Part shown: piece by piece, positions 3,001 through 58,024 of the stretch
How positions within the stretch are numbered: the first letter of the stretch is position 1
Layout: each line of letters starts with the position of its first letter
Source of the DNA: Candidatus Falkowbacteria bacterium RIFOXYA2_FULL_47_19
GTDB lineage: Bacteria; Patescibacteriota; Patescibacteriia; Patescibacteriales; UBA12075
Assembly (NCBI GenBank): GCA_001780275.1
Contig: MFGB01000016.1
Coordinates: 27,205-91,204, forward strand
DNA length: 64,000 nt
Direction: 5' to 3'
Notes under the pieces: generated by a model
Databases searched by the model: none
The model's input: only the letters and a program-made list of their open reading frames with translations
What the model was told of the DNA's origin: nothing
Program-made: the position numbers and the translations under genes

Positions 3001-5179
3001 GAATAATCCGGCCAATGGATTGGGTTTAAGCTGCGCTTATCAAGTGGCCACTAATACCTGCGATACCGCTGTTTGTCCGGCGCCTTTCGGCTGCATAAAC
3101 GAGGACGGTTCCGCGCCGACGCCCTTTAACGTATCGGGAAATCCCGATACCTGCGGTGTCTGCTGCTGCGATCCGGGCAGCGCGGATTGCGATCCTCTGG
3201 GTCTTGATTGCCAGGCCGATAAATCGCCTTGTACCGGCGGGAGCCGGGGACTCTGCTGCGGCTGCGATACCGATCTTGATTGTTCTTTGACGGGCATCCC
3301 TCCCGTCAACGTCGGTTGCGGGATCGATACCTGCTGTCGGGCCCGGCCCACCATCGTGCCTAATTCGGAGATGCCGGCCGATGACGCTGTCAACATTTGC
3401 CGCAACGCGGTTTTTTCCGTGACTTTCAATCAGCCGATGTCAGTCGCGAGTTTTTCCGGCAATGTCATCGTGGTGGGGGATTATATGGACGCTAATTGTC
3501 CGGCAGGCACGGAATACCTGGCTAGTGATATTCATATAAAAGACCGGAGTCGTTTGGCGTCCCGTATCTATAATAAGATGGGATGGCTCCTTTATCGGAC
3601 GATGGAAACCATCCTACCCTCTTTCCTGGCCGAAGCCTATACGCCCCCGGCCGCAAGCCGTAATTATTGCGCTATTGCCGGAAGTACCGGCGGTTCGACC
3701 TTAAGCGGGCAAACGACCCTGACCTTCACGCCTTCTTCTCTGTTGGAGGGAAACAGGCTTTATTACGTGATTATTAAAGGAGACGAGAATCTCGACTCGA
3801 ACCACGGCGTCCTTTCCGCTTGGGGGGTAGGTTTTAACGGCGGCCTGGACCTAACCTTTAACGGCATAACTTACCGCAATTCGCACGTCTGGTCATTCCG
3901 TACTTTAACCGAGCAGTCCCCCAATAACGGCGTTTGCGAACTTAACCGGGTTGACGTCAGGCCGGAATCTTATCTTTTCCAGACTACCCGCAACGATATC
4001 AATAATGAGAATGATACGAATCCGGCGGATCCGACTTTCGATAAGATCACGGACGCCGATAAGGTTTTTACGGCTTATCCGCTGAGCCGCGACGGCCAGG
4101 TTTTGGGAGCCATACCCGGTCTTTACGATTGGACCTGGACCTGGACGTCAGGCGCTCCCCAGGTAGCCGATATCGCGGCCCCGGGTCCGTTCCCGGTCGG
4201 AGGAGAAGATAAGAAATTGGTGGTTGCCGATGCTCAAACGACCGACGGCTATACTCTTCTTTCCGCCCGGGCCATAATCGGTTCGAGCGTCATACCGACT
4301 TCCCCGGCCGGCACGGTTTATCCCGGCAGTGCGGATGTTTATGTGTTTGTCTGCGAAAATCCCTGGCCTCCGGTCATCGGAGGATTGTGGGCGCCCTGGC
4401 AGGACGCGGCCGGGAATTGCACGCAGGCGGCGGGCGGCTGCGCCAATAGTTATAATTACGAGATCTATTATTGCCGCGACCAGGGTCAGGTCGGAACTTT
4501 CGACGATCTGCCCGCCATAACATATGACCGCGTGATCGTCGGCGAAAATCTTCCCGGTCTCCTTAAGGAATATTATTTCTTCCGGGAAGCGGCGCCGGTA
4601 TCGACGACTACCCTTAATGTGACCAATGGCGGCACAGGCGGAAGCGTGACCGCGACCTGGAATCCGCCGGTAGCCGGCGCCAGCGGTTATCGTCTTTACT
4701 GGGGAACGTCTCCGGGTTTTTACGGCAGCAATGTTGATGCCGGCAATATTTTAAGCTATAATATAACCGGTTTAACCGACGATATTCCTTATTATTTCAA
4801 TATCACGTCCTATAATGCCGCGGGAGCGGAAAGCGGGATGAACGGCGAATTCGGACCGGTCATTCCTAGGGACACGACAGCGCCGCTAGCCCCCACGGGA
4901 CTTACCGGTACTGCTGGCAACGGAGAGGCGCGTTTAAGCTGGAATCCCGATACAACGGGAAGTATAGCTGATTATACGGTTTATTTCCGGAGCGGTTCAG
5001 GCTGCGCCGGAGCTACTCCTCCGGCCTGCTACGGCAACTCGGAGGATATCGGGCTGGACGAAGAAATAATAATATCCGGATTGACGGCCGGCACTAATTA
5101 TTATTTCGCGATAACGGGGAGCGATGACGCCGGCAACGAAAGCGGATACTCGAATGAGGTTATGGTAATGCCCAATTAA
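2..5179 (+). CDS. giant Cys-rich surface/secreted protein with an N-terminal TM helix, IPT/TIG-like modules and two C-terminal fibronectin type III domains; probably 5'-partial in this window
   Basis: The ORF track gives 14..5179 (TTG start), but the frame stays open to base 2. Hydrophobic helix VAAVIGLIIILMSFAIASFVL. Dozens of Cys in CC/CxC/CxxC patterns. Three IPT-like units (PVIDWVSPPDGARGNLVTIGGRFFG, PYITGFEPSSGPPGQYVTIYGGGFG, PSICRITPIMGPNNSPVSLYGEYFG). Two FN3-like units (WNPPVAGASGYRLYWG..YYFNITSYNAAGAES and LSWNPD..YTVYF..YYFAITGSDDAGNES). Confidence 0.8.
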   Translation, partial: AKKTLVAAVIGLIIILMSFAIASFVLNSLLSATGGNACNPGDPPRSCGCYGTQVCQADNTWGPCSGVCGGGDVCCPLTGCQAPPCSPGGTVDCDSVPGPTCSSPDNMICDTFFTPGTYFCDPTACTCSPLGGFGDPCDGDSATAVCDATDSMCVSGLRCDDTVGSPTECRCIGAPVIDWVSPPDGARGNLVTIGGRFFGAAPGEVYFNGVLAPFPNTVNPNCTAFWSDNQVIVVVPAGAPMGANVIRLVRSSDTEEDTTDNARGPVIDPGFIVNNTVRPGLCQLSTTTGYYQDIITYQGINLPNGTRTYFGNYTDNIAALNSLFTDPQGRFGTAGVPDMRAGNTTTFASSTNPSNYLNFRVSTLTVTGPYITGFEPSSGPPGQYVTIYGGGFGAARGGSSVSFGATEADYDFPEDCADSVWTDHRVIVKVPDGISGSETIFMDVGSWPQIDTGTLNPAQFSITAGAPAPSICRITPIMGPNNSPVSLYGEYFGAADDTVWFHLNHGQTTHASWLDNPDPNADTIVTTVHQLAVTGPVSVEQSGSIGNSIDFTVGLCTNAPDPDAACGGVCCPSGTFRAGRCATDAAAMGGNGDGFVTIEDCYNRITSSVYEWEFTSETGTSTIPGGLGDPCYVDALTTPGCNPIYGPCQIGLYCDNDPASPTHCTCQTAAALESCSGYSMDQCLNSRFCPNSPGQCSTDPGGSTETVGTCDSSCSSVSPACAGGACSYNSVIDRCVDGSNCDLSPVFYDILNNPAQSYCADYSGAARWHLRTNLSCPTSTPGWIKIPPGNVCVNPNLPCLACANGLECLDDLVAPADEGVCAIAADICPPGATCAANRCELTSTPACECCCEIGQDARDCCVPLECTGSCGSGGSFGECSGCALAGTTQAERNDACNCTGTSGKFCDTADPGYPDGVCRDCTGLAGAADCLNIGVGSCCFDEKDNVDICRGGDGTILGGSCPYWNCLPVPNNDTCNTGAANAVIDGDYRDEVSCVAGCLMNNPANGLGLSCAYQVATNTCDTAVCPAPFGCINEDGSAPTPFNVSGNPDTCGVCCCDPGSADCDPLGLDCQADKSPCTGGSRGLCCGCDTDLDCSLTGIPPVNVGCGIDTCCRARPTIVPNSEMPADDAVNICRNAVFSVTFNQPMSVASFSGNVIVVGDYMDANCPAGTEYLASDIHIKDRSRLASRIYNKMGWLLYRTMETILPSFLAEAYTPPAASRNYCAIAGSTGGSTLSGQTTLTFTPSSLLEGNRLYYVIIKGDENLDSNHGVLSAWGVGFNGGLDLTFNGITYRNSHVWSFRTLTEQSPNNGVCELNRVDVRPESYLFQTTRNDINNENDTNPADPTFDKITDADKVFTAYPLSRDGQVLGAIPGLYDWTWTWTSGAPQVADIAAPGPFPVGGEDKKLVVADAQTTDGYTLLSARAIIGSSVIPTSPAGTVYPGSADVYVFVCENPWPPVIGGLWAPWQDAAGNCTQAAGGCANSYNYEIYYCRDQGQVGTFDDLPAITYDRVIVGENLPGLLKEYYFFREAAPVSTTTLNVTNGGTGGSVTATWNPPVAGASGYRLYWGTSPGFYGSNVDAGNILSYNITGLTDDIPYYFNITSYNAAGAESGMNGEFGPVIPRDTTAPLAPTGLTGTAGNGEARLSWNPDTTGSIADYTVYFRSGSGCAGATPPACYGNSEDIGLDEEIIISGLTAGTNYYFAITGSDDAGNESGYSNEVMVMPN

Positions 5180-5337
5180 CGGGCATTCGATATTGATTAT
5201 CGGATATTTCTCTTGTAAAGGCGAAATTTTCGATAACCAATATCGAAATATTGGGATTATTTTTTAAAAAGAAATATTTTAAATACAGTAGTGATTCAAC
5301 ATGCTGTCTACTGCATTTTGTTATTTCTTGAAATTTT

Positions 5338-11730: not shown

Positions 11731-11822
11731 TCAACTTAGGAGCGACCAACGCTCCTTTTAAATTTAAAAAATTCCCGCCGGAGATTTTCCGACGGGATTT
11801 TATTTTTGTCTAGAAATTTTTT

Positions 11823-11912
11823 TTCGTTAAATTTCGTGAATATTCGTTAATTTCGTGTTTTGGTTTAAAACACTCTAGACACAGAATAAACAAAAGGCAC
11901 GAAATAAACGAA
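11823..11912. repeat. phased TTCGT x4 / ACGAA x2 inverted array (copy B)
   Basis: TTCGT starts at 11823, 11833, 11843 and 11852. ACGAA starts at 11899 and 11908. The array lies between the convergent LOG and hpt genes. Confidence 0.8.
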
Positions 11913-11932
11913 ATCGCTGAGGGCTTATTTTG

Positions 11933-12689: not shown

Positions 12690-12717
12690 TTGATATTACT
12701 ATATCTTGTGGTATAAT
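12690..12717 (+). promoter_or_regulatory. sigma-70-type promoter of the nrd leader
   Basis: TTGATA (12690-12695), a 16-nt spacer containing TG, then TATAAT (12712-12717). Confidence 0.7.
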
Positions 12718-12743
12718 ATAATTACAGCCCACAAGATGTAGTG
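12698..12743. promoter_or_regulatory. pair of NrdR boxes
   Basis: ACTATATCTTGTGG (12698-12711) and CACAAGATGTAGTG (12730-12743) both resemble the palindromic NrdR box (acaCwAtATaTwGtgt). Their centres are 32 bp apart and box 1 overlaps the -10. They lie upstream of nrdR-nrdD-nrdG. Confidence 0.75.
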
Positions 12744-12760
12744 ATTTAAGGAGGATTAAG

Positions 12761-12818
12761 AAAAACACCTATATAAGCCCTTTTACATAAGAGGTTATAG
12801 GAAAAAAGGTGTTTTTTT
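12761..12818 (+). terminator. leader hairpin plus U-tract (attenuator/terminator) between the NrdR-box promoter and nrdR
   Basis: AAAAACACCT (12761-12770) pairs with AGGTGTTTTT (12807-12816), with an inner TATAAgCC / GGTTATA stem, followed by a T7 run. AAGGAGG lies at 12748-12754 just upstream. Confidence 0.55.
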
Positions 12819-12843
12819 GTTTGCCGCCGCGGGCATAAACTTA

Positions 12844-12907
12844 ACGAAAACGGACGAAAATACACGAATTTATAAAGACGCTTTCGTGTGGTTTCGTTAA
12901 TATTCGT
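12844..12907. repeat. phased ACGAA x3 / TTCGT x3 inverted array (copy C)
   Basis: ACGAA starts at 12844, 12854 and 12864. TTCGT starts at 12883, 12893 and 12903, an exact 10-bp period. The array ends 19 nt before the nrdR ATG. Confidence 0.8.
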
Positions 12908-12925
12908 TTAATCAGTATATATCGC

Positions 12926-31289: not shown

Positions 31290-34226
31290 TTAGATTTTAT
31301 GGAGCCTAAGCGGATTTTTAAGCCTTTTATTGGCTTCGTTCAATTTGTCTTCGTTCGAAATAACGGCGGTTGTTTTGTCGGGCGAGTCAAAATATTTTTT
31401 GGCCACCCTGACGATATCGTCGCGCCGCAGCCGGATCAGGCCGGCTTTGAAAGACTGGCGCATATCATCGGTTGCCAGGATCAGCTCCCGGTAAAAAGCG
31501 AGCTCTGAAGCCGGTCCCGGAGGATCCGGTTTATCTAATTCGGCACAGACCATAAGAATCGCTTCTTTGACGTTTTCGTCGGTGTAGTTTCCGGACCTGA
31601 TAAAATCATCCGCCCGGTTGTAAACACCAAGAGTGTTGATGATATGCGGATCCCGGTATGAAGCATAGGCGAATATCCCGTTTTCGGGATTGTAATTGGC
31701 AAATCCGCCGTAAGCGCCGCCTTTTTCCCTTAGCTCCCGGTGCAGATATTCGTTGCGCATAAGTTCGGCGATGACTGCGAGCGCCGGAGCGTCTTTGTGG
31801 CCGTATTTGACGGCTTCGAAAGCCTGGGCCACGAACGATACGGCGGTGGCGGTTGACCAACCTTCTCGGACAATCGTGTCGGTTGATGTTATTTTGGGAG
31901 ACCGGAAATTATCGGCCTTGTCCGTTCCTCTTCCGGCCAGAAAATCAAGCAGCCGTTTGTCCGGGTTTTCGTTTACGAAAGCCATTTTCAGGTTAGCCGG
32001 CTTTAAGACGGTTTTTTTGATCGCTTCCAGGTCGCGCGCTATGACTTGGAGTTTTTCGTGCCCCAGGTTCAGAGACAGGCCCTTTAGGAATTCGAATTGA
32101 TGGATTCCATCCCATGATTCTTTTAGGAAATTTGTTTTGGAAAAATTCCTGGAAGCTAAAGACATCGCCAGACGATGGCCGTTTTGAATGATCCGCGATT
32201 CTTTTGAGGCCTTGAATCTGTTAAGCGTGTTGGCCAGATGTTTAAGGTTGTCAAAAACCGTTTCGTTAATTAATTCTTCGATCAAGGCGAGCATTTTTTC
32301 TTTATTACGGCTTAAGCATTTGCCGGAAAAAGAGACAAAGGGCAGAGTCGTTCTGGTACCGCCGTATTTAGTATGGACATGCGGACTCAGGCTGATATCG
32401 CCGGTATAACGGTCGATTTCGCGCATCAAAGCCGCGTAATCCCGCCGCTTTGTTCCCATTAAAGGATAGGCGAAGCAGAAGAACGGCACCAAGGGCAGGA
32501 GTTTTTCCGGCAATCGGCCCAGGCCCGCGGCGGCGGTAAAATATTCAATGCCGGCGGTGGGTTGCCTGTACAGGCTGACGCGTCCGTTTTCGATGGCGGC
32601 CTTAACGCTGATAACGGTCGGGGGAATATCCGTTCGTTCCAGGGTCGGCAATATATCCAGGCTTTCTTTTGATTCCTGCAATTTTTCGAGCGCCGTAGCG
32701 GTGGCCTTGATCTTTTCGATCTCCACAGAACCCAGATTGGCTTTAATAGCGGCCAAGCGCTTCTTTTCCTCTTGTTCGAGTCCGGCCTGCATAGTCGTAT
32801 CCGCTTTGAGCGTAAAAAGCACGCGATGGCCGTTATCTATGAAGTATTCCTTGATCTTCTTTTCCAGATAGGCGCCGTTCCCGATCAGATCGCGCAGTTT
32901 TTCAAAAGCGGTTTTTACATTAAGGGCATGAAGCGGGTCGCCGCCATGGATCCAGCATCCGGCCGAATCCAGGAATAGTTTCAGGCCGTAAGGATAGGGT
33001 TCGTTCACTATCTCCTTGGCCTGGAATTCGATCTGGTGGATCGCCGATTCGACCAGTTCCGGGTCGATGCCGTCAGCCGCCAGATTTTCCAGGGTCGAAA
33101 AGATTATTTTTTCGATTTCCGGTGCCGCCGCCGCGTTAACGTCTTTAAGGCCGGCGGCGAACATAGTATCGCGGTTTTCGCAGTTATAGCCGGAGGCGTC
33201 GGACAGGGTCGAGCCCAAATTCGACTCGATCAGAGCGCGGCGCAGAGGAGCCGCGTCATTACCGAGAAGGATCTGCTCCAGGACTTTGAGCGTTAAAACC
33301 TCGAAAACGTCCTTTACATCGGCCGTTAGCCAGGCTACGCACGCCTGGTTCTTTTTTTTCGGGTTTTCGTTCGTGGGGTAGCGGTAAGTCGTTTTTTTCG
33401 GCTGGTCCCAGCGCGGCTGGTTAGGCACCTCGGTATGCGGGTCGATCTTCTTGAAACGGCCCATAATCTTTTCGCTGATGACCTTTAGATGGCCGGCCAA
33501 GGGCAGGTTGCCGTAAGTAAAGAAGAAAGCGTTCGAGGGGTGGTAATGGCGGCGGTGGAATTCTTTGAATTGTTCATACGTCAAAGACGGGATATCTTCG
33601 GGGTCGCCGCCGGAATTGTGTCCGTAGGTCGTATCCGGATAAAGGGCGTTCATTAAGGATCGGTACATCACATTCAGGGGAGACGACATAGCGCCTTTCA
33701 TTTCGTTGAAGACTATGCCTTTGTAAACAAGCTCTTCGGCGCCGGTATCCGGATCTTTCTCGATTTCGTAGCGCCAGCCTTCCTGCCGGAAGTTCAATTC
33801 TTCCAGACGGGGAAAGAAAGCGGCATCGAGATAAACGCCGAGGAGATTATAGAAATCTTTCGTGTTTTGGGTGGCGAAAGGATAACTAGTCCAGTCGGAG
33901 GCGGTAAAGGCGTTCATGAAAGTGCTTAAACTGCGTTTCATCATCGAAAAAAACGGGTCGCGGACAGGATATGATTCCGAACCGCAAAGGGCGGTGTGCT
34001 CAAGGATGTGGGCCACGCCGGTCGAATCGCTGGGCACGGTTTTAAATAGGACGCTGAAGGCGTTTTCTTTATCCTGATTGCTTATATGGATATGTTGAGC
34101 GCCCGTGGCCACGTGCTCCAGTTCGTAAAGTACGGAAGCGATGTCGGGCAGGGCAGCGGCGCGTTTTACCCGGTAGCCGAATAATTCCGCACCCTCAGTA
34201 AGTTCCGGATTGTTTTTATCCTTCAT
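31290..34226 (-). CDS. M16-family zinc metalloprotease (PreP/insulinase-like, M16C)
   Basis: HILEHTALCGS is the inverted zincin HxxEH motif. About 980 aa. I prefer the ATG at 34226, which has AGGAG 8 nt upstream, over the track start at 34268. Confidence 0.88.
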   Translation of the reverse strand: MKDKNNPELTEGAELFGYRVKRAAALPDIASVLYELEHVATGAQHIHISNQDKENAFSVLFKTVPSDSTGVAHILEHTALCGSESYPVRDPFFSMMKRSLSTFMNAFTASDWTSYPFATQNTKDFYNLLGVYLDAAFFPRLEELNFRQEGWRYEIEKDPDTGAEELVYKGIVFNEMKGAMSSPLNVMYRSLMNALYPDTTYGHNSGGDPEDIPSLTYEQFKEFHRRHYHPSNAFFFTYGNLPLAGHLKVISEKIMGRFKKIDPHTEVPNQPRWDQPKKTTYRYPTNENPKKKNQACVAWLTADVKDVFEVLTLKVLEQILLGNDAAPLRRALIESNLGSTLSDASGYNCENRDTMFAAGLKDVNAAAAPEIEKIIFSTLENLAADGIDPELVESAIHQIEFQAKEIVNEPYPYGLKLFLDSAGCWIHGGDPLHALNVKTAFEKLRDLIGNGAYLEKKIKEYFIDNGHRVLFTLKADTTMQAGLEQEEKKRLAAIKANLGSVEIEKIKATATALEKLQESKESLDILPTLERTDIPPTVISVKAAIENGRVSLYRQPTAGIEYFTAAAGLGRLPEKLLPLVPFFCFAYPLMGTKRRDYAALMREIDRYTGDISLSPHVHTKYGGTRTTLPFVSFSGKCLSRNKEKMLALIEELINETVFDNLKHLANTLNRFKASKESRIIQNGHRLAMSLASRNFSKTNFLKESWDGIHQFEFLKGLSLNLGHEKLQVIARDLEAIKKTVLKPANLKMAFVNENPDKRLLDFLAGRGTDKADNFRSPKITSTDTIVREGWSTATAVSFVAQAFEAVKYGHKDAPALAVIAELMRNEYLHRELREKGGAYGGFANYNPENGIFAYASYRDPHIINTLGVYNRADDFIRSGNYTDENVKEAILMVCAELDKPDPPGPASELAFYRELILATDDMRQSFKAGLIRLRRDDIVRVAKKYFDSPDKTTAVISNEDKLNEANKRLKNPLRLHKI

Positions 34227-34434
34227 CTTTTTTTCTCCTCGCTTGGTTTTTATTGCCGTTTTAGACATAACACCGATTAAAAACTTAGCCTTTCTTTATT
34301 GTAATTGATTTATTGTCAAAGGTCAAAAATTTATAACTTTAGATAAATTTAGCATAAAGAGGGAGGAAAAGTCAAGAGTGGGCGGGAAGAGAGGCTGCGT
34401 TGCGACCCCTCTGCCCGCCTTGATTAAAACCTAA

Positions 34435-34462
34435 TTGATTTTTAATCCGGGTTTGTTATAAT
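34435..34462 (+). promoter_or_regulatory. strong sigma-70-type promoter with no downstream ORF
   Basis: TTGATT (34435-34440), a 16-nt spacer, then an extended TGtTATAAT (34454-34462). Confidence 0.65.
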
Positions 34463-34468
34463 ATTATT

Positions 34469-34733
34469 GATGATAAAAATACTTGTCATCTGCAAAGGCT
34501 TCACCAGGCTAACTTCAAGATTTGGATCAAATTGTAAAGAATGGCTTTCCGTTTCTCGCGCGGTTCCGTGGAACCCGGAGTAGGAGACAAGGGCTAGAAA
34601 TCTTTCTGCTTCAACCATTATTCGGAAGATAATACTTCTGAAGAGATTGAACCGGAATGAACTGTTAAGCGATTAACAGCGCCCAATGTATATGGCCAAT
34701 TCTTGGATAGGCATTTTTGGTGAAGCTTTTTTA
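34469..34733 (+). ncRNA. candidate structured ncRNA of unknown class (about 265 nt)
   Basis: Bounded by the promoter above and a T-run. A 5'/3' closing helix forms between GCTTCACCA (34498-34506) and TGGTGAAGC (34718-34726). Internal hairpins: CTGTTAA-GCGA-TTAACAG (34662-34679), GGTTC-cgtg-GAACC (about 34562-34575) and TTCGGAAG..CTTCTGAA (34621-34642). No credible ORF. Confidence 0.45.
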
Positions 34734-34741
34734 TATTCACA

Positions 34742-34796
34742 ATGCGAATCTGCGAATAGATGCCTTAAATTGAGAATGATGCGAATTGTCGTTCTT
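34742..34796 (+). repeat. (A/C)TGCGAAT short-repeat cluster
   Basis: atgcgaat at 34742, ctgcgaat at 34750 and atgcgaat at 34789. Followed by the hairpin ATCCGG-ttatgg-CCGGAT plus T7 (34806-34830). Confidence 0.6.
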
Positions 34797-34880
34797 ATCC
34801 GGTTATGGCCGGATTTTTTTGTTTGACTGGACAAATTATGTTTTTTTGTTTAATATGAATAAAGAAAGAATATTGTCAAT

Positions 34881-34976
34881 GGGCCGTAGTATAACCTGCC
34901 TGCCGGCAGGCAGGCGGTAGTACCCCGAAAAAATCGCTTTGCGATTCTCGGGACAAGCGCGAGCATAAGCGCATGT
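34881..34976 (+). pseudogene. tRNA-Pro 5'-half copy interrupted by two hairpin insertions
   Basis: GGGCCGTAGTATAAC, GGTAGTAC and GCGAGCAT are identical to blocks of the downstream tRNA. They are split by the palindrome CCTGCCTGCCGGCAGGCAGG and by CCCGAaaaaATCGCtttGCGATtcTCGGG. There is no T-arm and no 3' acceptor strand. Confidence 0.55.
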
Positions 34977-34992
34977 AAAATTAAATATTATT

Positions 34993-35063
34993 CGGGCCGT
35001 AGTATAACGGTAGTACGCGAGCATGGGGTGCTTGTAGCGAGGGTTCAATTCCCTCCGGCCCGA
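34993..35063 (+). tRNA. tRNA-Pro (anticodon GGG)
   Basis: Hand-folded cloverleaf. Acceptor CGGGCCG / CGGCCCG. D-arm GTAT-aacggta-GTAC. Anticodon stem CGAGC / GCTTG with loop AT-GGG-GT. T-arm GAGGG-ttcaatt-CCCTC. Discriminator A. CCA is not encoded. Confidence 0.9.
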
Positions 35064-35073
35064 CAGATAAAAT

Positions 35074-35114
35074 ACGAATGACGAATTTCGAATGAATCAA
35101 TGATTTAAAACGAA
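35074..35114 (+). repeat. heptamer-period (A/T)CGAAT repeat cluster
   Basis: acgaatg acgaatt tcgaatg in tandem, plus a further acgaa at 35110. Lies between the tRNA-Pro and the HAD gene. Confidence 0.6.
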
Positions 35115-38236: not shown

Positions 38237-38392
38237 TTATCACGAGCGCGGCGATCCTGGGATGAACCCGGGACGGCCCGAAGCGATTTATCGCGAACGG
38301 CCGGAGTACTGGCTCTATGACCCGCCGGCAACCATTCCCTAAAAGGAAAAGGTGCCCCTTCCAGCCCCGTAATACCGGGGAAAGATGATTTT
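38237..38392 (+). promoter_or_regulatory. SAM-I (S-box) riboswitch; core 38283-38392, preceded by a half-copy-like segment
   Basis: Core: UUUAUCgcgaaCGGCCGGAGuACUGGCuCuAUGAcccGCCGGCAACCauucc-cuaaaa-ggaaaaGGUGCCccUUCCAGccccg-uaaua-cgggGAAAGAUGA. This matches the GGAGGGACUGGCCC.AUGA..CCCGGCAACC...GGUGCCAAUUCC...AGAUAA pattern of SAM-I. Candidate promoter TTGCTT-17-TATAAT at 38177-38205. Lies upstream of metK. Confidence 0.75.
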
Positions 38393-38430: not shown

Positions 38431-38438
38431 AACATAAT

Positions 38439-38531
38439 GCGAATTTGCGAATTATGCGAATTCTACGAATATGCGAACAGTCCATGTTAATTCGCATGTT
38501 CGTAGGTTTGCATATAAATTCGTAGTTTCGC
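38439..38531. repeat. GCGAA x5 / TTCG(C/T) x4 inverted short-repeat array with an 8-9 nt period
   Basis: (G/A)CGAA starts at 38439, 38447, 38456, 38465 and 38473. TTCGC/TTCGT starts at 38491, 38499, 38519 and 38527. The array lies between the riboswitch terminator and the metK ATG. Confidence 0.75.
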
Positions 38532-38546
38532 ATCATAACCAAAAAT

Positions 38547-57829: not shown

Positions 57830-57911
57830 ATGATTTTGGCTTTAAGCCTTAATTAATAATTAATCCCGGGAGAAATCTTATTATTGAGAATGATTCCCGT
57901 ATATATAAAAA

Positions 57912-57935
57912 GACGGTTGGGGAAATTTTTATGAG
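57912..57935 (-). promoter_or_regulatory. CTCAT-N15-CGTC bipartite promoter-like motif upstream of paralog 2
   Basis: The minus strand reads CTCAT aaaaatttccccaac CGTCTTT. The geometry matches the three ATCAT-N15-CGTC copies. Confidence 0.45.
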
Positions 57936-57962
57936 AGGATTACAATCTCTTTACGATAGATT

Positions 57963-58008
57963 AAGAATAAAATAAGAGACGAGATATCTCGTCTCTTATT
58001 TTATTCTT
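57963..58008. terminator. 46-nt perfect palindrome (bidirectional terminator)
   Basis: AAGAATAAAATAAGAGACGAGAT followed directly by its exact reverse complement ATCTCGTCTCTTATTTTATTCTT. Confidence 0.75.
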
Positions 58009-58024
58009 ATCTCAAGATAAATAT

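Follow-up and report, generated by a model that had tools for sequence, protein, structure and literature searches.

Here we describe a conserved, structured RNA element in a 64,000-nucleotide (nt) stretch of contig MFGB01000016.1 (the window) from the uncultured Candidatus Falkowbacteria bacterium RIFOXYA2_FULL_47_19, a member of the Candidate Phyla Radiation (CPR; Patescibacteria). An exact-sequence look-up names RIFOXYB2_FULL_47_14 as well as RIFOXYA2_FULL_47_19 for this DNA. The element occupies part of the 724 nt that separate an M16/PreP-type peptidase gene on the minus strand (31290-34268) from tRNA-Pro(GGG) (34993-35064). A search of related genomes recovered the homologous RNA in two other Falkowbacteria genomes, and it is thus seen in at least three Falkowbacteria species. 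Comparison of these copies shows a conserved unit with sharp boundaries, purifying selection and conserved pairing, and without a conserved open reading frame (ORF). We consider it very probable that this is a real, selected and structured RNA gene. We infer that it is transcribed, that transcription terminates at a U-run and that the RNA acts in trans with a protein partner. With some reserve, we favour a stand-alone, trans-acting non-coding RNA (ncRNA) gene of an undescribed family, so far seen in Candidatus Falkowbacteria only.

Conservation and selection in a close relative

The closest homologue is in a second Falkowbacteria metagenome-assembled genome (GCA_043801965.1, locus L178), where gene order is the same as in the window (M16 peptidase, RNA, pseudo-tRNA, tRNA-Pro, HAD, CAP, metK). 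A covariance model built from the window sequence alone matched positions 3141-3382 of this locus at 245 bits. The conserved block extends from approximately 45 nt upstream of the promoter to the U-run exactly, and DNA above about -45 is unalignable. Identity between the two sequences is 100% from -35 to +25 and 212/237 in the RNA body (MAFFT; about 91% in the covariance-model alignment), and drops to 21% in the spacer after the U6, which also differs in length. Four-fold degenerate sites in the same pair of genomes were 80% identical for HAD, 68% for CAP and 62% for metK, or about 68% when pooled, and identity of the RNA is far above this neutral expectation (binomial p = 7e-15). This indicates that the RNA is under purifying selection and that the edges of this selection coincide with the predicted promoter and terminator. 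The promoter-to-terminator non-coding unit proposed in the initial annotation of this DNA therefore corresponds to one conserved block with matching edges.

Promoter and predicted fold

The promoter of the initial annotation (TTGATT, 16 nt, TGtTATAAT) is present at 34435-34462, and when 2.5 kb were scanned no other site both matched at 10/12 positions and had an extended -10 (TG). Sites consisting of TTGAnn, a 16-nt spacer, TG and a perfect TATAAT occur only three times on the plus strand of the 64-kb window, in all three cases in intergenic DNA, and TTGAnn-16-TGnTATAAT is therefore plausibly the strong-promoter form of this organism. Transcription would start near 34469.

The minimum free energy (MFE) fold of 34468-34735 on the plus strand is -86.5 kcal/mol (z = -4.6), the centroid equals the MFE structure and the pair probability is 0.84-0.99 for most helices. 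The minus strand folds at -71.6 kcal/mol, 15 kcal/mol weaker, with the plus strand favoured by G.U pairs and U-runs. All three pairings singled out in the initial annotation are present. The 9-bp helix joining the two ends (GCTTCACCA at 34498-34506 with TGGTGAAGC at 34718-34726) extends as RNA to 14 bp (34494-34507 with 34717-34730), with the T6 run at 34727-34732. Inside it, TTCAAGA (34514-34520) pairs with TCTTGGA (34701-34707) and continues as TTGG/CCAA, and the GNRA-capped stem CTGTTAA-GCGA-TTAACAG is found at 34662-34679. Taken from the window sequence alone, this case is suggestive only. Other intergenic regions of the window give z-scores that are equal or more negative, down to -9, owing to long palindromes; with palindromes of this kind (z -6 to -9) in the genome, a low z-score is not diagnostic by itself. 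By our estimate, an end-to-end helix of 13 bp is no more than moderately improbable as a chance event within about 1 kb. It is the comparative evidence from the two relatives that takes the case beyond chance. The features of the locus are as follows.

34435-34462 (+): sigma-70-type promoter, TTGATT-16 nt-TG-T-TATAAT with extended -10 (sequence scan; identity in L178)
34469-34490 (+): 5'-terminal hairpin, GAUGAUAA-AAAUAC-UUGUCAUC, 8 bp (pair probability 0.98)
34494-34510 (+): P1, 5' strand of the closing rod (AAAGGCUUCACCAG + GCU), pairing with 34710-34730
34514-34533 (+): conserved block UUCAAGAUUUGGAUCAAAUU, comprising the P2 5' strand (UUCAAGA, U.U mismatch, UUGG) and the start of the junction strand
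34540-34550 (+): conserved junction block AAUGGCUUUCC, invariant in all three sequences
34555-34580 (+): hairpin H1, CUC-G-CG-C-GGUUC CGUG GAACC-CG-GAG, sequence variable
34580-34594 (+): conserved GUAGGA (invariant), then a linker and the P3 5' strand (GGGC)
34601-34660 (+): hairpin H2, a long irregular arm with apical stem UUCGGAAG/CUUCUGAA, varying between species
34662-34684 (+): hairpin H3 (CUGUUAA-GCGA-UUAACAG, 34662-34679), then the P3 3' strand (GCCC)
34695-34710 (+): conserved block GCCAAUUCUUGGAUAG, the P2 3' strand
34710-34732 (+): P1 3' strand (GGC....UUGGUGAAGCUUUU) running into U6 (34727-34732), the putative intrinsic terminator and 3' end
34797-34820 (+): canonical hairpin terminator, AUCCGGU-UAUG-GCCGGAU + U7, outside the conserved RNA

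The order of the unit is thus promoter, 5' hairpin, P1, P2, junction, H1, P3 enclosing H2 and H3, P2, P1 and U-tract, and the length of the RNA is 237-285 nt across copies. Structure is conserved and sequence is free in P1, both strands of P2 are conserved in sequence together with the U.U mismatch, H1 is variable, and H2 and H3 are variable and expandable. Four invariant or near-invariant blocks surround the junction (UUCAAGNUUUGGAUCAAAUU, AAUGGCUUUCC, GUAGGA and GCCAAUUCUUGRAUAG), of which the 5' junction strand (13-19 nt) is largely single-stranded in predictions. Pairing of AAUGGCUUUCC is ambiguous, with either a small hairpin (GAAUGG-CUUU-CCGUUU) or a pairing of UUUCC with GGAGA; two one-sided changes slightly favour the hairpin.

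Compensatory change in a distant relative

Falkowbacteria RIFOXYB2_FULL_34_18 (L182-L184) carries the second homologue. The same single-sequence covariance model of the window matched positions 4262-4546 of L182 at 29.8 bits (E = 4e-8); by sequence alone, the nhmmer E-value was 0.015. GC content is 43% for the window versus 25% for L182. Gene order is partly conserved: the copy sits between a pilin-like gene and a CAP-domain gene, 163 nt upstream of the latter and 5.4 kb upstream of metK, which in the window is 3.8 kb downstream of the RNA. There is no tRNA near this copy, and the adjacency to a tRNA gene that was mentioned in the initial annotation holds for the window and L178 but not as a feature of the family.

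Folded alone, this 285-nt copy has a z-score of -8.5. At its two ends, AAAAAACACCGCUAUUUACUAUUCAAG and CUUGAAUAGUAAAUAGCGGUGUUUUUU pair perfectly over 27 bp, and U8 comes next. The outer half of this helix has almost no sequence in common with P1 of the window and yet is paired. In H1 the sequence differs from that of the window and the stem is a perfect one of 10 bp, P3 is GGGC/GCCC in the window and AGGA/UCCU in L182, and a 60-nt expansion occupies the position of H3; H2 also differs in sequence, in a part of the alignment that is of low confidence. The conserved blocks UUCAAGAUUUGGAUCAAAUU and GCCAAUUCUUGGAUAG, both identical in L178, each differ by one base in L182 (G to A in the latter). 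Just before P1, GUAAUU..AAUUAU is an analogue of the 5' hairpin, which has one loop change in L178. We found no terminator in L182 other than P1-U8, and between the U8 tract and the CAP gene there is a promoter-like site.

Across an alignment of the three sequences that was fitted to the structure of the model, 19 pairs have changed on both sides, as compared to 6.7 +/- 2.2 in shuffles and 1-6 in slid controls, and 94.7% of alignment cells are paired. Changes on both sides in L182 affect 6/14 pairs of P1, four of H1 and two of P3, and 100% of P1 cells are paired in the three sequences. RNAalifold independently recovered P1, P2, H1, P3, H2 and H3; a shortened core alignment made with MAFFT mis-registers P1 and was not used. 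Within the close pair, P1 has changed from G.U to A-U and from U.G to C-G, several G.U pairs of the window are A-U or G-C in L178, and H2 has two A-U pairs altered to G.U and one loop base altered. The H3 loop is GCGA in the window versus GAAA in L178, both GNRA, and both bulged bases of H1 are deleted in L178. The earlier claim of a structured RNA of about 265 nt thus gains support from a closing helix and an H1 that are kept by compensatory changes in L182. The sequence motifs are also specific, as the 16-mer block was present among 275 loci in family members only, and the UUCAAGAUUUGGAUCAAAUU motif likewise, except for viral contigs that had been retrieved using the motif itself.

Coding potential

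No reading frame is conserved in the RNA, with frames broken by indels in L178 and absent in L182, in agreement with the initial annotation, which had seen no plausible ORF. Gene callers placed a 58-amino acid (aa) antisense ORF over the RNA, but this is frameshifted in L178, is absent in L182 and has no homologue among 5.8 billion proteins. Three 'significant' matches to it in a 1.8-billion-protein library were rejected as tandem-repeat artefacts, single units of which score approximately 24 bits. We therefore set aside a small protein gene, for which no frame is kept between species and no true homologue of the 58-aa ORF exists in these libraries. As a separate observation, HMMER gave whole-library E-values of 1e-19 to 1e-26 for this 58-aa query from the long tandem-repeat ORFs P0242-P0244, of which P0243 has matches in 17 stretches, P0244 in 13 and P0242 (3353 aa) lists none; summed repeat matches may look significant in such a case.

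Known RNA families and distribution

Searches with Rfam 15 covered the 6S, RNase P, signal recognition particle (SRP), transfer-messenger RNA (tmRNA), Y RNA, riboswitch, ribozyme and large ornate RNA families. Only tRNA and the S-adenosylmethionine (SAM) riboswitch were matched in the window, with nothing at the RNA unit, and relaxing the threshold to E <= 10 produced nothing relevant for 901-nt and 276-nt queries of the window and no match for the L182 copy. ARAGORN found no tmRNA in the window or in L178. The initial annotation had left the class open for want of RNase P, tmRNA or SRP signatures, and the class is still open, as no Rfam family matches.

Several specific candidates were rejected. 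For RNase P RNA (RF00010/RF00011), both P4 strands (GGAAAGUCC and ACAGAANCCGGCUUA) are absent on the plus strand, the helices are nested and there was no match at E <= 10; a P4-like helix, AAGAAUGGC/GCCAAUUCUU, has a G-C pair altered to A.C in L182 and a nested topology. Because scores under the Rfam thresholds and missing helices are common among the RNase P RNAs of CPR bacteria (Lui et al. 2021; PMC8172020), we retain a minimal residual doubt on this identity. There was no match to SRP RNA (RF00169/RF01854), and the only GNRA hairpin, H3, is a perfect 7-bp stem that is replaced by the 60-nt expansion in L182. For Y RNA/YrlA, there was no Rfam match and no Rsr/TROVE protein among the window ORFs scanned (Pfam, NCBIfam) or the called genes of neighbouring loci. 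A retron msr-msd or defence-associated reverse transcriptase (DRT)-type ncRNA would require a reverse transcriptase, and none is found among the neighbours (M16 peptidase, tRNA-Pro and HAD; pilin-like and CAP). A likeness to the loop-E arm of 5S rRNA (AUGG...GAGUAGG) is attributed to chance, there being no 5S model match, and an 8-mer common to the RNA and the 16S 3' end was set aside as chance.

Searches elsewhere did not extend the family. Neither the RNA nor a nearby tRNA was detected by nhmmer and blastn in 160 loci with M16/PreP synteny (80 from GTDB genomes and 80 from Joint Genome Institute metagenomes). The best relatives of the M16 peptidase are Desulfobacterales proteins with 55-57% identity, while relatives of metK are all, like the host, from Patescibacteria. 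The M16 gene was therefore probably acquired horizontally, which explains the failure of the synteny search through M16. Patescibacteria metK relatives (L165-L171, L185) showed no conserved gene order and no match to the model. Plasmid and phage collections contained no match to the RNA, viral contigs from six scans with RNA-motif patterns were chance matches rejected by the covariance model, and we found no description of such an RNA in the literature on Falkowbacteria or Parcubacteria.

Interpretation and alternatives

In the mechanism that we propose, a strong sigma-70-type promoter would start transcription near 34469 and a short 5' hairpin would begin the RNA. Pairing of the 5' and 3' parts of the RNA would give a rod of about 30 bp (P1+P2). 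As the U-tract follows the rod directly, and L182 has no other terminator, rod and U-tract may form an intrinsic terminator, and the rod may shield both ends. The rod would open into a multi-helix junction bearing nearly all of the invariant nucleotides, and this three-dimensional core could bind a partner, most likely a protein, as a ribonucleoprotein (RNP) scaffold or as a decoy like 6S or Y RNA. The combination of a conserved junction, a free periphery and a sequence-conserved duplex points to a specific partner-binding core and does not look like a linear antisense seed. Action in trans is suggested because selection on the RNA persists even though what lies downstream changes from genome to genome and is served by a promoter of its own. 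In the window and L178, the downstream genes are set apart from the RNA by two conserved elements, a terminator and a tRNA promoter: the terminator at 34797-34820, 65 nt beyond the U-run of the RNA, keeps its stem and U7 in L178 with a different loop, the 61-nt spacer before it (34736-34796) is unalignable, and it is probably a back-up stop that insulates the conserved tRNA promoter. We put forward the protein-binding, trans-acting reading tentatively, as an idea that could well be wrong.

A number of points weigh against our interpretation. There are only three distinct sequences, two of them close relatives, all compensatory changes come from one divergent lineage, and the fitting of the alignment to the model's structure bears on the pair counts. 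Three predicted pairs are broken in L178 (H1, G-C to U.U; P3, C-G to C.A; and the 3-bp helix of 34527-34529 with 34693-34695, A-U to A.C), and pairing within the junction is ambiguous. There is no convincing promoter upstream of the L182 copy, which starts 20 nt after the pilin-like gene and may be co-transcribed and processed. A terminator with a loop of about 200 nt is unusual, the known distribution of the RNA is narrow, no partner gene is conserved beside it in the three loci, and the putative protein-binding role is proposed from the pattern of conservation.

It is also possible, although we regard it as doubtful, that this is the RNA subunit of a CPR-specific RNP, a new housekeeping-grade class distinct from analogues of the 6S, Y, RNase P and SRP RNAs. 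The conserved four-way-junction core and the sequence-conserved duplex with its U.U mismatch would then recruit a dedicated protein, and the particle could tie to the reduced, episymbiotic lifestyle of CPR hosts.

The initial annotation likened the unit to 6S-like housekeeping RNAs, and this comparison was not borne out. RF00013 did not match at its gathering threshold or at E <= 10 (901-nt and 276-nt window queries, L182 copy), and, although a closing rod and a large junction loop are present, the full rod shape of 6S RNA is not found, since the distal part is a multi-helix junction, formed by H1 and a P3 domain carrying H2 and H3, and not a single terminal arm. A functional analogue of 6S/Ms1, whose rod and single-stranded junction mimic open promoter DNA and sequester RNA polymerase, is unlikely. 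The strong housekeeping-type promoter, the stand-alone unit and the approximately 30-bp rod opening into a conserved, largely single-stranded 5' junction strand (13-19 nt) would all fit such a role, and 6S families are known to keep their shape while sequence is poorly conserved. However, the other models were equally unmatched at E <= 10, variable hairpins emanate from a distal three- or four-way junction, the length is 237-285 nt as against about 150-200 nt for 6S RNAs, and the sequence of the P2 duplex is conserved, which would be needless for shape mimicry.

A cis-acting riboswitch or attenuator, in which a ligand-stabilized P1 acts as the terminator and controls CAP or tRNA-Pro plus HAD, seems improbable to us. 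Aptamers typically combine variable peripheral helices with a conserved junction core, as seen here, a U-run directly follows P1, and a CAP-domain gene lies downstream on the same strand in 3/3 genomes, only 163 nt away in L182. Nevertheless, the element immediately downstream differs between genomes, being a terminator, promoter, pseudo-tRNA and tRNA-Pro in two and a promoter-like site and CAP in the third. A terminator, promoter, tRNA gene and HAD stand between the RNA and CAP in the window and L178, where purifying selection persists, and a YkuD gene on the other strand also intervenes in the window. The promoter-like site after U8 in L182 is a further obstacle, and there is no conserved anti-terminator or other alternative pairing, the alternative helix AAGAAUGGC/GCCAAUUCUU being unsupported in L182.

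We think it similarly improbable that this is a base-pairing small RNA with a seed in AUCAAAUU or in the Shine-Dalgarno-like UAGGAG, directed against mRNAs or the 16S 3' tail. Short invariant stretches that are predicted to be unpaired in a stand-alone promoter-to-terminator unit could be read in this way, but small RNAs of the seed type are typically far smaller and less elaborate in fold than this RNA, and both strands of the P2 duplex are conserved.

A non-functional relic, such as a miniature inverted-repeat transposable element (MITE), a decayed gene or a DNA-level regulatory sequence, might be suspected from the 13-bp terminal inverted repeat, from the coding-like GC content and from the neighbouring tRNA and pseudo-tRNA fragment, beside which integration scars are typically found. 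This is very unlikely, as conservation is well above neutral with sharp edges at the promoter and U-run, and the compensatory changes and G.U pairs are relevant only at the level of RNA. The 64-kb window and each of the loci contain one copy only, and no target-site duplication was seen; a search by tblastn for remains of the approximately 130-aa gene that precedes M16 in relatives found nothing, and there is no protein homologue.

Lastly, a highly divergent RNase P RNA, SRP RNA or tmRNA missed by the Rfam models would suit the strong promoter, the tRNA neighbour and the low scores of CPR RNase P RNAs noted above, but is extremely improbable, since none of the three matched at E <= 10 (276-nt stretch, L182 copy), ARAGORN found no tmRNA, the P4 strands are absent, helices are nested and not in P2/P4 pseudoknot order, there is no GNAR-capped helix 8 with conserved loops, and, to our knowledge, no bacterial RNase P RNA is as small as 237-285 nt.

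CPR/Patescibacteria make up a large share of bacterial diversity and have tiny genomes. Universal RNAs of the CPR are already atypical, and in the literature we found no report of a lineage-specific ncRNA in this group. With a promoter among the best of the window, selection above neutral and a fold kept from 43% to 25% GC, the stand-alone RNA described here is a concrete and testable candidate for a new class in these organisms. If it is widespread in Patescibacteria, it would constitute a new Rfam family, would improve annotation of long 'empty' intergenic regions in CPR metagenome-assembled genomes and could point to an RNP or regulatory mechanism so far unrecognized. If it is confined to a few Falkowbacteria, it would represent a modest lineage-specific small RNA.

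Neighbouring elements

Other features of the window were observed around this unit. Directly upstream of the -35 of the RNA, at 34380-34419, is a GC-rich hairpin, GGGCGGGAAGAGAGG...CCCCTCTGCCCGCC, which is unique in the window. It is not conserved, having 15% identity in L178, and is placed outside the conserved unit because an unrelated, longer sequence replaces it there. Downstream, at 34881-34965, there is a partial copy of the 5' third of tRNA-Pro, 113 nt ahead of the intact gene. Its first bases are GGGCCGTAGTATAAC (15/15 identical), its D-loop holds the inserted perfect palindrome CCTGCCTGCCGGCAGGCAGG (19-20 nt), and its D-arm is followed by a hairpin of 33 nt. The acceptor strand of this fragment pairs with the 3' strand of the true tRNA in the MFE fold (z = -5.4), and the fragment is also present in L178 (approximately 3590-3700), with a different GC-rich hairpin at the same position. 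The M16/PreP-like peptidase (992 aa; 31290-34268, minus strand) is split in L178 into two ORFs of 812 and 161 aa, pointing to a frameshift or a pseudogene.

Clusters of the heptamer TGCGAAT/TACGAAT, direct and inverted, occur in intergenic DNA at 34743-34786, 38438-38545, 35070-35100 and 12840-12925. Three copies lie just after the U-run of the RNA and are not conserved in L178, and at least eight lie between the SAM-riboswitch terminator and the metK start codon. These heptamers might be binding sites of a regulator or a species-specific short repeat. A second promoter-to-terminator unit at 12690-12820 (plus strand) has TTGATA-16-TGgTATAAT, approximately 95 nt and a strong hairpin with U7; it contains AAGGAGG with no obvious start codon and could be another small RNA, or else a very short ORF. 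Very long hairpins, near-perfect over 17-21 bp and with z-scores of -6 to -9, are present in intergenic DNA at 5180-5337, 57830-58024 and 11731-11932 and are probably bidirectional terminators. A SAM-I riboswitch and terminator lie upstream of metK (38285-38391). From the sequence of L165, which has a metK relative with 79% identity, we read a leader like a SAM riboswitch and a terminator at approximately 1180-1400, and a gene for a 23S-rRNA-intervening-sequence protein is located between this leader and metK.

Comparison with known systems

The RNA resembles 6S RNA (RF00013)/Ms1 in being a stand-alone gene with a strong promoter, in which pairing between the 5' and 3' ends gives a long rod with interruptions, leading to a large region that is single-stranded in part, and its action in trans on a protein would be a further likeness. 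It differs in matching no model, in a multi-helix distal junction with three variable hairpins and in a sequence-conserved inner duplex; 6S RNA is characterized by binding of the RNA polymerase holoenzyme and by templating of product RNAs (pRNAs). In Y RNAs/YrlA, as here, a U-run comes after a stem that joins the two ends, this stem includes a conserved duplex interrupted by a mismatch or bulge, which in Y RNA is the binding site of Ro, and the distal module is variable. Unlike these RNAs, the present RNA has no Rfam match and no tRNA-like module, is two to three times larger and is not accompanied by Ro60/Rsr (TROVE) among the window ORFs scanned or the called genes of related loci. CPR RNase P RNAs (Lui et al. 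2021; PMC8172020) are similar in host, in evading Rfam thresholds and in having variable peripheral helices round a conserved core, and the RNA has a tRNA neighbour in two genomes; it lacks P4 sequences, pseudoknot topology and an RF00010 match and is too small.

Like raiA, OLE, ROOL, GOLLD and HEARO, the RNA has an intricate fold derived by comparison, a GNRA loop, a conserved junction and a restricted lineage, in this case Patescibacteria; it matches none of their models and is smaller than OLE, ROOL or GOLLD. Its P1-closed multi-helix core, invariant junction nucleotides and U-run after P1 recall transcription-terminating riboswitches, from which it differs in having no consistently adjacent ORF, independent terminator and promoter elements downstream of it, and no aptamer model match. 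Although the RNA fails the defining tests of each family, its overall design is nearest to that of end-paired, stand-alone RNAs such as 6S/Ms1 and Y RNA.

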